A stretch of 64,000 nucleotides of DNA from Clostridium sp. (GTDB lineage: Bacteria; Bacillota; Clostridia; Clostridiales; Clostridiaceae). Positions 15,240-17,825 of the stretch are shown here, piece by piece; the first letter of the stretch is position 1; each line of letters opens with the position of its first letter. Made by a program: the position numbers and the translations under genes. Location of the stretch: positions 2,722 through 66,721 of the forward strand of contig NZ_JAVXRL010000008.1 of assembly GCF_036643715.1 (NCBI RefSeq). Reading direction: 5' to 3'. The notes beneath the pieces are model-generated. The model did no database searches and had not been told where the DNA came from. It saw only the letters and a program-made list of their open reading frames with translations.

Positions 15240-15692
15240 ATGGAAATTAATGATATCCTACACGGATTCAATAATGACTCAGATTGTGACGATGACTGCA
15301 TGGATAATGATTGCGGATTTGGCAATGATTGTGGATGCGGTAATAACGGTTGCGGCGGCGGTAATAACTGCGGCTGTGGAAACAATAATATATGTTTAAT
15401 AATTTTATTATTAGTACTTTGTGGCGGATGTGGCTCACAAGGCGGAAATGGAGGATGTGGTAATATGGGAAATAATTGTTGTTGTTGTTGTTGTGAAAAA
15501 CCTAAATTTAAAAAATGTACAGAAACTGTGTATGTTCCAGAATGCGGATATCCAGCTTATGGATACGGAAATGCTGGAATGGGTGGAAACTGTGGATTCG
15601 GAAATGAATCTTGGTGGATTATAATACTATTATTATTATTCTGTGGCGGAAACGGATTCGGCGGAAACTGCGGCGGATGTGGAAACTGCTAA
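15240..15692 (+). CDS. Cys/Gly/Asn-rich protein, possible spore coat/exosporium component
   Basis: RBS aaggagg. About 25 Cys in 150 aa, a CCCCCC run (tgt x6 at 15477-15494), two short hydrophobic 'IIILLLL.C' modules. Confidence 0.7.
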   Translation: MEINDILHGFNNDSDCDDDCMDNDCGFGNDCGCGNNGCGGGNNCGCGNNNICLIILLLVLCGGCGSQGGNGGCGNMGNNCCCCCCEKPKFKKCTETVYVPECGYPAYGYGNAGMGGNCGFGNESWWIIILLLLFCGGNGFGGNCGGCGNC

Positions 15693-15731
15693 TAAAGTAT
15701 AAGAAATATAATGAAATAGGAGGAATTTAGT

Positions 15732-15998
15732 ATGTCTCACAAAAAATCAAGTTGTTGTAGTTGCTGTGATAGAACAGTTGTAGTTTCACCTCAACATCAA
15801 GGAAACTGCGGATGTGGAAATAATTCAATATGGATAATAATCTTATTATTATTATTCTGTTGTGGAAATGGAAATGGATTCGGTGGAAATTGTGGAAATA
15901 ATGGTGGCTGTGGTAATGGCTGTGGTAATAATAGTTTCTTATGGATAATTATATTACTATGTTGTTTCTGTGGAAACGGAACTGGTTTCGGATTCTAA
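15732..15998 (+). CDS. Small Cys/Gly/Asn-rich protein sharing the module of the upstream gene
   Basis: RBS aggagg. About 14 Cys in 88 aa, two 'GNNS.(L)WIIILL..(C)C' modules. Confidence 0.7.
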   Translation: MSHKKSSCCSCCDRTVVVSPQHQGNCGCGNNSIWIIILLLLFCCGNGNGFGGNCGNNGGCGNGCGNNSFLWIIILLCCFCGNGTGFGF

Positions 15999-16035
15999 TT
16001 TAAACAAATTAATCAATTTTAGTAATTGGTAGTTG

Positions 16036-16058
16036 TTGGAGGGCTTTATGCCCTCCAA
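16036..16058. other. GC-rich hairpin without a downstream U-tract on either strand
   Basis: ttggagggc-tttat-gccctccaa, followed on + by an A-run. Not a canonical intrinsic terminator; could be a stabilising or processing hairpin. Confidence 0.5.
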
Positions 16059-16078
16059 AAAAAAGCTCTAAAATAATA

Positions 16079-16106
16079 ACATAATTGATATAAATTACAT
16101 ACTATA
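16079..16106 (+). promoter_or_regulatory. SigmaK-like promoter
   Basis: ACA (16079-81), 16 nt, CATACTATA (16098-106), matching the B. subtilis sigmaK consensus ACA-N16-CATAnnnTA. Confidence 0.45.
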
Positions 16107-16135
16107 TAACTAGAATACTTTGTAGGAGAATGAAT

Positions 16136-16771
16136 ATGGCAAAGAAGAGACATAGAAATAGAGAAAATGAGTATGCAAACGGAAATGGCCAAGAACAATT
16201 TAACAATTTTGCAAACAATCCTTTTGGAATAGATCCTAATCAACTTATGAATATGCTCGGAAATGTAGATGGTGATAAACTGAAAAACATAATGGAATCA
16301 ATGGATAAAGAGGGTATAGATTTAAATTCCTTTATGGCTCAAAATGGTATGAATACTGGCAATAATGGAATGAATCAAGGTAATCCTGGAATGAATAACA
16401 ATGGAAACCAAGGTGCTGGGAATAATATGAATCCTATGGATATTTTAAAAAATATGGGGATGAATCAAGGGAATGCTGGAATGAACAATGGTAATCCTGG
16501 AATGAATGGTAATATGGGATCTATGGGCAATATGAACCCTATGGCTATACTTAGCCAACTTACACAAATGGGCAACTTTAATGGTCAAAATAAAAACAAT
16601 AATAATAATGGCAATAACAATAATAACAGAAAGAATAATAAAAAAAATAAATATAATACTGGGGATGCAAATATGGATATGTTGCTTGCTGTAAGAGATT
16701 CGGTAGATTCTGAAAGAATTGAATTTGTAGATAAAATAATAGGCATGTATAAAAAAGGTGACTTAGATTAA
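16136..16771 (+). CDS. Asn/Gly/Met-rich low-complexity protein
   Basis: ATG 16136 with RBS aggag. Central repeats 'GMNQGNPGMN', 'GNNMNPMDIL' / 'GNMNPMAIL', poly-Asn, with helical-looking N- and C-termini. Confidence 0.75.
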   Translation: MAKKRHRNRENEYANGNGQEQFNNFANNPFGIDPNQLMNMLGNVDGDKLKNIMESMDKEGIDLNSFMAQNGMNTGNNGMNQGNPGMNNNGNQGAGNNMNPMDILKNMGMNQGNAGMNNGNPGMNGNMGSMGNMNPMAILSQLTQMGNFNGQNKNNNNNGNNNNNRKNNKKNKYNTGDANMDMLLAVRDSVDSERIEFVDKIIGMYKKGDLD

Positions 16772-16814
16772 AAAAAGTTGAATAAAAAAAATGAATGGTG
16801 TTAATAATATAATT

Positions 16815-16909
16815 GTACCGGAGAAATTATTCTCCTACATTTACACTAAATTATTATTTAGTGTAACAAACCCCCCATCCCCCTTTTAGGCCGCTTTAAG
16901 CGGCCTTTT
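16815..16909 (+). ncRNA. Putative C-rich small RNA or structured 3' UTR
   Basis: Two hairpins, tract caaaccccccatccccctttt, then terminator aggccgc-tttaa-gcggcct-tttt oriented on +. Confidence 0.45.
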
Positions 16910-17825
16910 AATTTGTACTAATATTCGAAATTTTAAAGCTTTCATTATTTATATTTGAAATATCTAAGATAATAATGAATGGAATTTTCTTAGAGGTTGA
17001 TCTTTGTATTTTTTCAAATTTTAATATCATATTTATTTCATTTAAATTTCCATCATTATCAATAATATTATCATAGAAAAAAGCATCTTTAAAATTATAT
17101 TCGAATGAATCTTTATCTAATTGCCAAAGTATAGATAAAGTGTCTTTATCAATATCTTCAGTAAATATATTTGGAAGTTCAGAAACTTCGTAATCAATAA
17201 GTATTAAATCTATAAATTTGACTGCATTAATATAACCCAAATCCAAAAAAGAATTATTAGATATGTTCGTTAGATCATTGTTTAGCAGCATGTAATTTTC
17301 AAATGAATCTTTTATATCTCTATGATTAAATGATTGTAACATAGGAGTTCTATTCATATTTGAGTCTATGATTCCTAAGACATCATTATTAGATGAAGTT
17401 TTTAGTGTGAATTTATTTTTTTCAAAAGAAAATAAATAATTTATAGGTTCATTATTCTTATACCCTTGTACAATAATTTCACTTTTATTATCACGGGAAA
17501 TATTAGAAATTGCTACATTCATTGAATATGAATCTGATACGTCGGATAAATAATTTGATGAACTTAACGAGCTGAGTAAAATAGTATTTTCTAAAGTTGT
17601 TATTTGTACATCGCCCTTTCCTTTTGAAGTAATTATTTTTATTATTTCATTGATACCATCACCAGTTAAATCTGCAGCAAATTCATCTTGTAATTTTATT
17701 GGCGCGCTTGATTCTTTAATATCGAATTCAATTGACTTAGAACATAAAATAAGAATAGATATTAAAAAGATAAGAAAAATAATAAAAGATATTAAAACTG
17801 TTTTAAATTTAAAAGTAAATTTCAT
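16908..17825 (-). CDS. Membrane-anchored hypothetical protein with an FG-GAP/VCBS-like Ca-binding motif
   Basis: N-terminal TM helix. 'ADLTGDGINEII' and a degenerate second copy 'NISRDNKSEIIV'. Confidence 0.6.
   Translation of the reverse strand: MKFTFKFKTVLISFIIFLIFLISILILCSKSIEFDIKESSAPIKLQDEFAADLTGDGINEIIKIITSKGKGDVQITTLENTILLSSLSSSNYLSDVSDSYSMNVAISNISRDNKSEIIVQGYKNNEPINYLFSFEKNKFTLKTSSNNDVLGIIDSNMNRTPMLQSFNHRDIKDSFENYMLLNNDLTNISNNSFLDLGYINAVKFIDLILIDYEVSELPNIFTEDIDKDTLSILWQLDKDSFEYNFKDAFFYDNIIDNDGNLNEINMILKFEKIQRSTSKKIPFIIILDISNINNESFKISNISTN

Follow-up and report, generated by a model that had tools for sequence, protein, structure and literature searches.

A 64,000-nucleotide stretch of a Clostridium sp. 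contig (positions 2,722 to 66,721 of NZ_JAVXRL010000008.1, assembly GCF_036643715.1), hereafter called the window, contains a block of small genes downstream of clpX, lon and engB. The engB gene (14482-15078; match to TIGR03598, E = 1.4e-73) is followed on the plus strand by a terminator identified in a terminator scan (15085-15133; a 19-bp AT-rich stem and a run of seven Ts), two cysteine-rich open reading frames (ORFs), ORF1 (15240-15692, 150 amino acids) and ORF2 (15732-15998, 88 amino acids), a GC-rich stem-loop without a U-tract (16036-16058), a gene for an Asn-, Gly- and Met-rich protein, ORF3 (16136-16771, 211 amino acids), and a C-rich structured RNA (16814-16909). This layout, with all elements on the plus strand, had been described in an original prediction made from the sequence alone, and it was confirmed to within a few bases. 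The same prediction took the elements to form a possible self-contained spore-surface assembly cassette. ORF1-3 do represent a conserved and co-located set, but the block consists of several transcription units, and the RNA is an independent small RNA (sRNA). The stretch downstream of engB is thus most likely a conserved clostridial sporulation island of separate transcription units, rather than one cassette.

The EngB protein of the window was used as the query to collect one genome per species, which provided 80 loci with 7-kb flanks (L001-L080) from Clostridium sensu stricto, Sarcina, Hathewaya and about ten more distant Clostridia; counts of sources given below refer to these loci plus the window (81). 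Two loci, L012 and L014, are truncated by contig ends. The closest relatives of the window are C. sardiniense, C. nitritogenes and C. baratii. Homologs to ORF1, ORF2, ORF3 and the convergent downstream gene ORF4 were identified by tblastn in 64, 61, 61 and 55 loci, respectively, and the matches that were inspected are located downstream of engB in the same order as in the window. A parse by composition (ORFs that contain hydrophobic cores and 7% Cys or more) identified Cys-rich ORFs after engB in 65 of the 80 loci. A hidden Markov model (HMM) built from the conserved N- and C-terminal parts of the ORF3 family matched 45 sources, namely the window and 44 loci, and in the 44 of these sources that have Cys-rich genes the match lies 47-666 nt (median 109 nt) past the last one. 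The block is not present in the non-Clostridium loci of the survey (L071 and L073-L080), ORF1-3 were also not found in L034 (C. ragsdalei), L050 and L065 (C. arbusti), and L067 retains an ORF3 homolog while its Cys-rich genes were not found. Within the sample, the block is limited to spore-forming Clostridiaceae. The recurrence of the same order of genes, hairpin and RNA in dozens of other species is far beyond chance, and the neighborhood of ORF1-3 is conserved across Clostridium sensu stricto in this synteny survey, a check that the original prediction had proposed.

ORF1 contains 25 Cys, 36 Gly and 22 Asn residues, and ORF2, with 14 Cys, is likewise rich in Cys, Gly and Asn. Each of the two proteins contains two hydrophobic cores of the type (W)IIILLLLFC, a feature absent from the original prediction. 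These are ICLIILLLVLC and WWIIILLLLFC in ORF1, and IWIIILLLLFCC and FLWIIILLCCFC in ORF2. ORF1 starts with a conserved N-terminus, MEINDILxG, and has a central basic patch, CCCCCC-EKPKFKKC; the members of the ORF1-type family have in common an N-terminus of the form M(E/D)(I/M/L)N(D/E)IL.G and a central poly-Cys and basic patch. The N-terminus of ORF2 is basic (MSHKK...CC..CC), and the ORF2-type proteins, which are encoded by one to two genes per locus, start with MS(K/R)K and have their two cores close together. In total, the composition parse identified 139 Cys-rich ORFs in 65 loci and the window, with one to three per locus and a Cys content of 7-26%, and all but seven of these (132 of 139) contain exactly two cores.

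No Pfam or NCBIfam model matched ORF1, ORF2, ORF3 or ORF4 of the window, even at E ≤ 1. Searches of the same databases with 9-10 diverse homologs of the window proteins gave no match at threshold, and 46 ORF1/ORF2-type members searched at E ≤ 10 gave no recurrent family. The scans bear out the claim that ORF1-3 have no recognizable enzyme domain. The relatives that were looked up in public sources are all annotated as “hypothetical protein”, with one exception labelled “ground-like protein”, and our literature search on Cys/Gly-rich clostridial spore proteins and abundant spore transcripts found nothing specific.

Cys-rich spore surface proteins are expected to self-assemble into structures that are stabilized by disulfides, and they lack the two strongly hydrophobic cores. 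We take CotY/CotZ in B. subtilis, ExsY in B. cereus, CdeC/CdeM in C. difficile and CsxA in C. sporogenes to be proteins of this kind. Similar to these, ORF1 and ORF2 have a high Cys content, a putative σK-type promoter and very high expression, and are found only in spore formers. They differ in that they are much smaller, rich in Gly and Asn, and contain the two cores, and the CotY/CotZ/ExsY, CdeC and CsxA families were not among the Pfam and NCBIfam matches (E ≤ 10) of the 46 ORF1/ORF2-type proteins. Another likeness is to the YjcZ proteins, which are tiny hydrophobic sporulation proteins in Bacillus (TIGR01732), and yjcZ is σK-dependent (PMC517825). ORF1 and ORF2 resemble them in their small size, the Gly-rich flanks around a core of I/L/V/F residues, the tandem paralogs, and a σK-like promoter, here predicted from sequence only. 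However, YjcZ has one core, while ORF1 and ORF2 have two and are very rich in Cys, and TIGR01732 did not match ORF1 or ORF2 of the window or seven homologs at E ≤ 1, nor any of the 46 members at E ≤ 10. We presume that this resemblance is superficial, and claim no homology.

Other functions were considered for ORF1 and ORF2. The proteins in these families are small (69-230 amino acids), nearly all have two hydrophobic segments and charged N-termini, the segments of the ORF2-type proteins are separated by a short polar turn, and the promoter is of a late, σK-like type, features that could also suit membrane-active proteins of the late mother cell. Such holin-like or membrane-remodelling proteins would have no structural role but would permeabilize or reorganize the mother-cell membrane or the outer forespore membrane, for example during lysis and spore release. 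We consider this unlikely, since holins do not typically have a very high transcript abundance or 7-26% Cys, their transmembrane domains are usually longer than the cores seen here, there is no linked gene for an endolysin or autolysin, and no holin family in Pfam or NCBIfam was matched. The clusters of the types CxC, CC and CCCCCC, in combination with abundant Gly and Asn, could instead be taken to indicate membrane-tethered, metallothionein-like proteins that buffer metals or redox state and that load or protect the developing spore. This is very unlikely in our view, given that the conserved hydrophobic cores and the Trp/Phe residues are unusual for metallothioneins, that no metal transporter or chaperone gene is linked, and that no Pfam or NCBIfam family was matched. 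The idea that ORF1 and ORF2 are precursors of ribosomally synthesized and post-translationally modified peptides (RiPPs) or of thiazole/oxazole-modified microcins (TOMMs) was rejected, because there are no linked maturation enzymes and the hydrophobic cores are conserved.

ORF3 differs in composition, with 54 Asn, 28 Gly and 23 Met residues but no Cys. The longest reading frame covers 16130-16771, and the second ATG, at 16136 (MAKKRH...), was taken as the start because all homologs begin with M(A/S)KKRH. The protein consists of a basic N-terminus, MAKKRHRNR, a NPFGIDPNQLMNMLGNVD...L motif, a low-complexity middle part, and a conserved helical hairpin at the C-terminal end, DANMDMLLAVRDSVDSERIEFVDKIIGMYKKG. 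The structure predicted by AlphaFold (AF2) from the family alignment contains confident helices only at residues 178-207 (predicted local distance difference test score, pLDDT, about 90; mean pLDDT 58), and the rest of the protein is probably disordered. A profile search with the ORF3 family retrieved 261 representatives at E ≤ 1e-3 among 1.84 billion proteins, and nearly all of the 150 matches listed are 86-300 amino acids long. The relatives that were sampled share the repeated motif N(I/V)D(M/I)NQ(L/I)S..L and a pair of C-terminal helices, LL.A(I/L)(K/R)P.V...(K/R)...ID.II.(L/Y)Y. Weak matches at E ≤ 1 to PF14071 (YlbD_coat), a putative coat protein in Bacillus, were obtained for 19 of 141 members (best E = 0.013) over the region of the N(I/V)D(M/I)NQ(L/I)... 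motif, and PF14071 is the top family by a wide margin, as other Pfam families matched at most four of the 141 members each. The gathering score of PF14071 (27 bits) was not reached by any of the 141 members, and ORF3 of the window was unmatched. Furthermore, YlbD has no documented counterpart to the C-terminal helical hairpin of ORF3. A remote homology between ORF3 and YlbD may thus be followed as a lead, but not as membership in the family.

The transcription signals of the block were compared with mapped promoters in C. difficile. Position weight matrices (PWMs) with two blocks were trained for σK, σE and σF/G on the promoters in PMC7438776 (Tables S5 and S6). The matrices recover the published C. 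difficile consensus sequences (GTAACA/GCATA, kmATA/CATATA and GTATA/GG..A.ACTA) and separate the training sets. Upstream of the ORF1 homologs, there is a very strongly conserved element of 37 nt, (A)GTGTCAA(A/T)-N12-(R)GAATAGTATATA(G/C/T)TATAAA, which in the window is located at 15173-15209 on the plus strand and is composed of GTGTCA (15173-15178), a spacer of 15 nt, and AATAGTATA (15194-15202), followed by TAGTATA. The pattern GTGTCA-N13-15-GAATA occurs once in the 64-kb window and has 43 matches in 42 loci, and all but one of these are placed within the interval between engB and the cassette (42 matches in 41 loci, with two in L052); the remaining match, on the minus strand of L074, is unrelated. 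Aligned as GTGTCA-N15-AATAGTATA, the element parallels the mapped σK pattern in C. difficile, GTAACA-N15/16-(C/A)ATA(G/C)TAT, with the same spacing (PMC7438776, Table S6). The σK promoters of cotA, cotE, CD1891 and CD2144 also have -10 boxes with an initial A (PMC7438776), and L024 and L039 have CATA at the -10 position of the element. The promoter is here termed only σK-like, because its -35 box contains TC rather than AC and σK was called in 21 of the 42 loci.

RNA contigs from two relatives have their 5' ends just past the element (at 8474 in L053 and at 7702 in L009). Transcription that starts directly after the element disfavors the overlapping reading as a σG-type promoter, in which GAATA would be the -35 box. 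More generally, the σH/Spo0A, σF, σG and σA readings of the element were rejected or down-weighted based on spacing, on required bases that are not conserved, and on contig 5' ends located upstream of the predicted start. The placement of the ORF1 promoter in the mother cell is indirect, and would follow from the case of ORF3, which shares a transcript with ORF1-2 in the C. sporogenes lineage and has a canonical σK promoter elsewhere. A different view of the same data is that the cassette is not specific to sporulation and represents an operon for membrane proteins that is very highly expressed in stationary phase or under stress, driven by another sigma factor or by an activator that binds the conserved GTGTCAAA box. 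The ORF1 promoter matches no consensus perfectly, the PWM calls are mixed, and the transcript is present in many RNA libraries of unstated physiological state; we also take the box to be similar to a degenerate form of the Spo0A box (TGTCGAA), with a GAAT core that is like a σH -10 element. Such a stress operon nevertheless seems improbable to us, since the co-transcription of ORF3 with ORF1-2 in some lineages and its canonical σK promoter in others point to the same compartment and a similar time, the neighboring units have σE- and σF/G-type promoters, and the block is confined to the spore-forming Clostridiaceae sampled.

The promoter of ORF3 (16078-16106, plus strand) contains AACA at 16078-16081 and CATACTATA at 16098-16106, with 17 nt from the C in the -35 box to the -10 box. 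The near clade of the window has the pattern (A)AACA-N15-17-CATA(T/C)(A/T)AT at this site, and the σK matrix was the best for these promoters, with 11.5-15.9 bits in the examples from the window and L001-L005, as compared to 8.5 and 12.2 bits for the 99.9th and 99.99th percentiles of the window. Thus, AC in the -35 box, a spacing of 15-17 nt, and a -10 box of the form CATA---TA are all present, and by its sequence the promoter is of the canonical σK type.

The stem-loop between ORF2 and ORF3 (16036-16058, plus strand) has the structure TTGGAGGGC-TTTAT-GCCCTCCAA and is followed by eight As that extend to 16064 (z-score of the minimum free energy, MFE, -4.2). Of the 37 sources examined, 36 have a hairpin of the form (T)GGAGGGC-loop-GCCCTCC(A) in the interval from the last Cys-rich gene to ORF3, with a run of five to eight As after most. 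The stem is conserved in sequence, the loops vary, and there are occasional compensated variants of the stem (GGAGGGT/ACCCTCC, AGAGGGC/GCCCTCT and GGAGGAT/ATCCTCC). A downstream U-tract was never present in the 37 sources, and the hairpin therefore falls outside the definition of an intrinsic terminator. It is a probable 3'-end-forming, attenuating or stabilizing element of the ORF1-ORF2 transcript, and the mechanism could be termination that is independent of a U-tract, processing, or protection from 3' exonucleases.

The sequence of the window was contained in no informative RNA run, and RNA evidence was obtained for the loci of two relatives, from samples whose physiological state is not given. 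In the C. sporogenes-like locus L053, a contig of about 1 kb (from 8474-8536 to 9457-9607) was assembled in four RNA runs, and extends from just past the promoter element through ORF1, ORF2 and the hairpin into ORF3, which lacks a separate promoter in the C. sporogenes lineage. The depth of this contig was 161, 156, 1683 and 57 in the four runs, of which the first two represent one organism, while the depth of engB and lon was 0-23 and the depth between the neighbor of engB and the cassette was zero. In the C. tertium-like locus L009, the contigs of ORF1-2 start at 7702/7719 and end at 8370-8379, which is 2-11 nt short of the hairpin, with a depth of up to 739 as compared to 18 for engB. Here, ORF3 is covered by a separate contig with a depth of 31-34 that starts at 8449/8470, in agreement with the start at about 8450 predicted from the σK -10 box, and runs to 9163. 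The cassette genes are thus transcribed far above their housekeeping neighbors, at least in these samples, and their transcripts are insulated from engB. The depth is zero between engB and the cassette in L053 and L009, and the terminator downstream of engB, which insulates the block from lon-engB, is probably bidirectional because there is an A-run on its other side.

The hairpin coincides with the 3' end of most ORF1-2 RNA where ORF3 has a separate promoter, and transcription proceeds through it where ORF3 has none. The read-through that the original prediction considered possible thus takes place in the C. sporogenes-like locus, where the contig spans ORF1-ORF3, but in L009 the RNA of ORF1-2 stops at the hairpin. 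The idea of one transcription unit with one terminator was not upheld, because ORF3 has its own promoter in the clade of the window and the abundant RNA of ORF1-2 does not extend past the hairpin. We infer that the hairpin sets the excess of ORF1-2 over ORF3. The transcript at 8474-9607 in L053 was observed in RNA libraries from unrelated kinds of samples (runs X14-X26), including a tick metatranscriptome, oligo-dT libraries and feces, and in run X15 the cassette alone was covered across 4.2 kb, with a depth of 1683 and flanks of zero. The coverage of the cassette alone and the diversity of the libraries suggest that the mRNA is extremely abundant or stable, and it is possibly carried in spores.

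The C-rich RNA downstream of ORF3 (16814-16909, plus strand) is about 96 nt long and highly structured (MFE -32.8 kcal/mol, z-score -9.4). It contains a first hairpin, P1 (16814-16839), a second hairpin, P2 (16841-16866), an unpaired stretch (16867-16887) that holds the invariant CCCCCCATCCCCC at 16871-16883, and a terminator identified in the terminator scan. The structured RNA and the true terminator claimed at 16888-16909 in the original prediction were recovered, the latter as a stem at 16888-16906 followed by a T-tract. When all homologs were aligned with MAFFT and RNAalifold, P1 and P2 came out misaligned and the terminator alone was recovered, and an alignment restricted to one clade, and then a covariance model built from 12 sequences, were used instead. 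The model identified exactly one copy of the sRNA in 58 of the 81 sources, always on the strand of engB. When folded singly, the homologs have P1, P2, the unpaired stretch and the terminator, and the C-run is fully unpaired in 45 of 47. The sequence of P2 is wholly different between clades, while the helix is retained. The stretch between P2 and the terminator contains the invariant, unpaired ACCCCCCAUCCCCC, and CCCC(C/T)CATCCCCC is present as a single occurrence in 54 sources. Compensatory changes were observed in 23 of 23 pairs, and 94.4% of the cells pair as compared to 71.6% when shuffled and 38-52% when the partners are slid, in an alignment fitted to the covariance model, which favors the structure in such pairing statistics. 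The covariation score was 0.48 versus 0.14.

All 58 copies of the sRNA are preceded by a promoter of the form TG(T/A)ATAAAA-N12-13-(G)G(T)(T/C)AATA(A/T)TA. In the window (16779-16813, plus strand), this consists of TGAATAAAA as the -35 box, starting at 16779, 15 nt, and GTTAATAATATAAT in the -10 region (16800-16813). It contains the -35 box G(T/A)ATA, the spacing of about 15-17 nt, and the -10 box xAATAaTA preceded by G that are typical of σF/σG. The C. difficile-trained σF/G matrix was the best for all 58 promoters. Their median score of 15.9 bits corresponds to about 2e-5 per site in the background of the window, where the 99.99th percentile is 13.9 bits. The promoter is almost superimposable on mapped σF promoters in C. 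difficile, for example that of spoIIQ, TGTATAAAATGCCAAAAACACGTCAATAAT (PMC7438776). By this likeness, we infer that the sRNA is expressed in the forespore via σF/σG, and that it and ORF1-3 would be made in different compartments, the forespore and the mother cell, respectively.

The distribution of the sRNA is also separate from that of ORF1-3. It is present without ORF1-3 in L034, L050 and L065, and beside ORF3 only in L067, while it was not found in 12 loci that have Cys-rich genes, including the Sarcina and Hathewaya loci. The sRNA ends at -1 to 68 nt from the stop codon of ORF4 in 49 loci, and stays beside the 3' end of ORF4 even where a WYL-type gene parts it from ORF3, as in L053. The original prediction combined ORF1-3 and the RNA into one module, in which the low-complexity protein would be a scaffold for the Cys-rich subunits, possibly under the control of the C-rich RNA at its 3' end. 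ORF1-3 are indeed adjacent and co-occur, some of the cassette genes have G-rich ribosome-binding sites, and in L009 the transcripts of ORF3 run through the sRNA region, with contigs that end at 9163, inside the C-run. However, the σF/G-type promoter at all 58 copies, the predicted compartment, which is unlike that of ORF1-3, the presence of the sRNA where ORF1-3 are lacking and its absence from loci that have them, and its association with ORF4 in L053 make the single module highly improbable, and the role of the RNA as the 3' regulator of the module did not hold. The C-rich RNA is an independent sRNA gene with the architecture of a trans-acting, base-pairing sRNA, including its own promoter, a covarying structure, an unpaired and conserved seed, and its own terminator, for which the pairing with targets is a prediction.

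No Rfam 15 family was identified for the whole 2.3-kb region or for the sRNA alone, which gave noise-level matches only. The best sub-threshold matches of the sRNA were to csRNA, with 23 bits against a gathering score of 57, and to rli22, with 19 bits against one of 80, and our search of the literature on C-rich clostridial sRNAs found nothing specific. The sRNA resembles RsaE/RoxS, LhrC/rli22 and the streptococcal csRNAs in an architecture that combines stem-loops with an unpaired, C-rich anti-Shine-Dalgarno stretch and ends in an intrinsic terminator, but it differs in promoter type and taxonomic range, and only the general design is in common. The closest parallel is CsfG, a forespore-restricted sRNA in Bacillus under the control of σF/σG, which has conserved, unpaired, CU-rich stretches and for which no target or phenotype is known (PMC3574147, PMC9147052, PMC8583004). 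Similar to CsfG, the sRNA has a forespore-type promoter, with expression that is predicted, a conserved and unpaired C-rich stretch, a spread among spore formers, and a ylbD-like neighbor. It is shorter, about 96 nt as compared to 136 nt, and its seed is one long run, ACCCCCCAUCCCCC, placed after P2 and ahead of the terminator. The Rfam motif ylbH/CsfG did not match either strand at 16770-16920 of the window or at 10860-11040 of L053, up to E = 10. The sRNA was set apart from CsfG by this ylbH model, and the clostridial “CsfG” of the original CsfG paper may be identical to the sRNA described here. By analogy, the sRNA would be a forespore riboregulator of the CsfG kind.

The csfG gene in B. 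subtilis is located between ylbG and ylbH (PMC3574147). In the window, the gene for the weakly YlbD-like ORF3 is located directly upstream of the CsfG-like sRNA (16136-16909). In B. subtilis, ylbD belongs to the same gene cluster as csfG. The adjacency of ORF3 and the sRNA may be a remnant of an ancient synteny with the ylb region.

The seed of the sRNA would pair with G-rich ribosome-binding sites. Among about 12 genes per locus, the best predicted duplex with the seed was formed by the initiation region of lon in 18 of 50 loci. The median duplex energy for lon was -11.95 kcal/mol, as compared to -8.1 kcal/mol for the other genes (Mann-Whitney p = 2e-9, ignoring phylogeny). The seed is complementary at 12 of 14 positions to the lon site of the C. 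tertium clade, AAGGAGGAUGGGAAU (lon starts in L009, L015, L019 and L022). The lon gene of the window (12168-14492), which is located between clpX (10738-12036) and engB, also has an unusually G-rich ribosome-binding region, AAUGGGGGAAGAUAGGUAUG (12138-12173), but it ranks only fourth of the 54 genes in the 64-kb window by pairing with the seed. We regard lon as a hypothetical target and as a lead only. Inspection by eye of the cassette genes revealed no consistent complementarity to the seed, and lon was the sole recurrent candidate. Ribosome-binding sites that contain GGGGG are also located at 29960, 43438, 44188, 45068 and 49634 on the plus strand of the window and represent further candidate targets. 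Runs of five Gs are rare at a GC content of 29%, with 13 in 128 kb of both strands, of which two correspond to the complement of the sRNA.

Sporulation-type promoters are found throughout the block (σK-like, σK, σF/G and σE), and a role for ORF1-3 in the spore envelope is therefore the best-supported reading and, on balance, modestly probable. The predicted late mother-cell promoters of ORF1-3 fit a role at the spore surface. In this reading, ORF1-ORF2 would be transcribed to a very high level from the σK-like promoter, with most transcripts ending at the GGAGGGC/GCCCTCC hairpin, and ORF3 would be transcribed from its own σK-type promoter or, where this is lacking, by read-through of the hairpin, to yield smaller amounts than ORF1-2. 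All three proteins would be products of the late mother cell. ORF1 and ORF2 may insert into the outer forespore membrane or the coat, or self-associate there, through their cores, and may be cross-linked through their many cysteines, while ORF3, mostly disordered and with its YlbD-like motif, may be an accompanying coat or morphogenetic protein. In the forespore, the sRNA would be transcribed by σF/σG and its unpaired C-rich seed would pair with G-rich ribosome-binding sites. A more far-reaching proposal, which we regard as doubtful, joins these parts into a hitherto unrecognized system for the spore envelope that is shared across the genus (Clostridium sensu stricto). This would consist of a membrane-anchored, disulfide-cross-linked layer of very abundant Cys/Gly-rich proteins with double hydrophobic cores, a YlbD-like, Asn-rich partner, in a protein stoichiometry set by the conserved U-less hairpin, and a counterpart to CsfG that represses mRNAs with G-rich ribosome-binding sites, such as lon.

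Several points weigh against a role in the spore envelope. The sigma factors are assigned by consensus similarity to promoters in C. difficile and B. subtilis, and the ORF1 promoter departs from the σK consensus at the two positions where this is most conserved, with TC in place of AC in the -35 box and A in place of C as the first base of the -10 box. Besides the 21 σK calls for the ORF1 element, the matrices called σE in 11 loci and σF/G in 10, and the overlapping σG-type reading is disfavored by the contig 5' ends alone. The depth of a contig reflects expression poorly, and overlapping transcripts can be merged into one contig. At 10-13 residues, the hydrophobic cores are short for transmembrane helices. 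For ORF3, the similarity to YlbD is below the threshold, and about 20 other loci have at this place a longer ORF rich in Asn, with a basic N-terminus as in ORF3 and a similar C-terminal helix, which was called as the positional equivalent by eye, not by the HMM.

Cys-rich spore-surface proteins and sRNAs with C-rich seeds are already known kinds. The ORF1-3 families and the sRNA have no model in Pfam, NCBIfam or Rfam and appear to be undescribed as far as searched. The outer layers of the spores in Clostridium, including C. botulinum/sporogenes, the relatives of C. perfringens and gut commensals, are poorly defined as compared to those in Bacillus and C. difficile, and ORF1-3 represent genus-wide families whose genes, in the relatives, apparently rank with the most strongly transcribed ones of the locus. 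If they are components of the envelope, they would be candidate determinants of spore resistance, hydrophobicity and adhesion, and targets for detection. The U-less hairpin apparently terminates or dampens a very strong transcript, and provides a testable case of non-canonical formation of 3' ends. The sRNA is among very few candidates for a forespore-specific riboregulator, with strong support by covariation, an invariant seed and a plausible neighboring target in lon, and it could make the question of the function of CsfG-type sRNAs experimentally tractable. If the proposal that joins the envelope system and the CsfG counterpart is true, this class of sporulation sRNAs would gain its first target and function.

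ORF4 (16908-17825, minus strand) is convergent to the block and encodes a protein of 305 amino acids with an N-terminal membrane anchor. It belongs to the conserved neighborhood, but not to the ORF1-3 set. Its promoter (17847-17876, minus strand) has the -10 box CATATACT at 17854-17847, followed by the ribosome-binding site GAGGAGG at 17842-17836. The homologs have CATATAAT or CATATACT as the -10 box at a fixed distance of 16-20 nt upstream of the ATG, and the C. difficile-trained σE matrix was the best for the ORF4 promoters in 39 of 45 loci. The stop codon of ORF4 abuts or overlaps the terminator of the sRNA, which on the strand of ORF4 is not followed by a U-tract, and the transcripts of ORF4 may therefore run antisense into the sRNA gene.

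Other genes are inserted into the block in some lineages. In L053, a gene for a CPBP-like polytopic membrane protein (7603-8328) is located between engB and the cassette, as in loci of the C. botulinum/sporogenes type and in some other lineages, and a gene for a helix-turn-helix regulator of about 320 amino acids, WYL-type by eye (9909-10865), is located between ORF3 and the sRNA. Insertions of these CPBP-like or WYL-type genes are also present in L048, L034, L055, L039 and L044. C. ragsdalei (L034) retains the CPBP-like gene, the WYL-type gene, the sRNA and ORF4, while ORF1-3 were not found. Downstream of ORF4 in the window, there is a gene on the plus strand (17911-19116) for a lipoprotein of 401 amino acids that by eye resembles a solute-binding protein, and a gene on the minus strand (19170-19586) for a protein of 138 amino acids that by eye resembles a regulator of the Fur/PerR family. 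From its locus tag, CAC2634 in C. acetobutylicum is presumably also located near lon-engB. CAC2634 is a regulator of the Fur family (PMC2530871).

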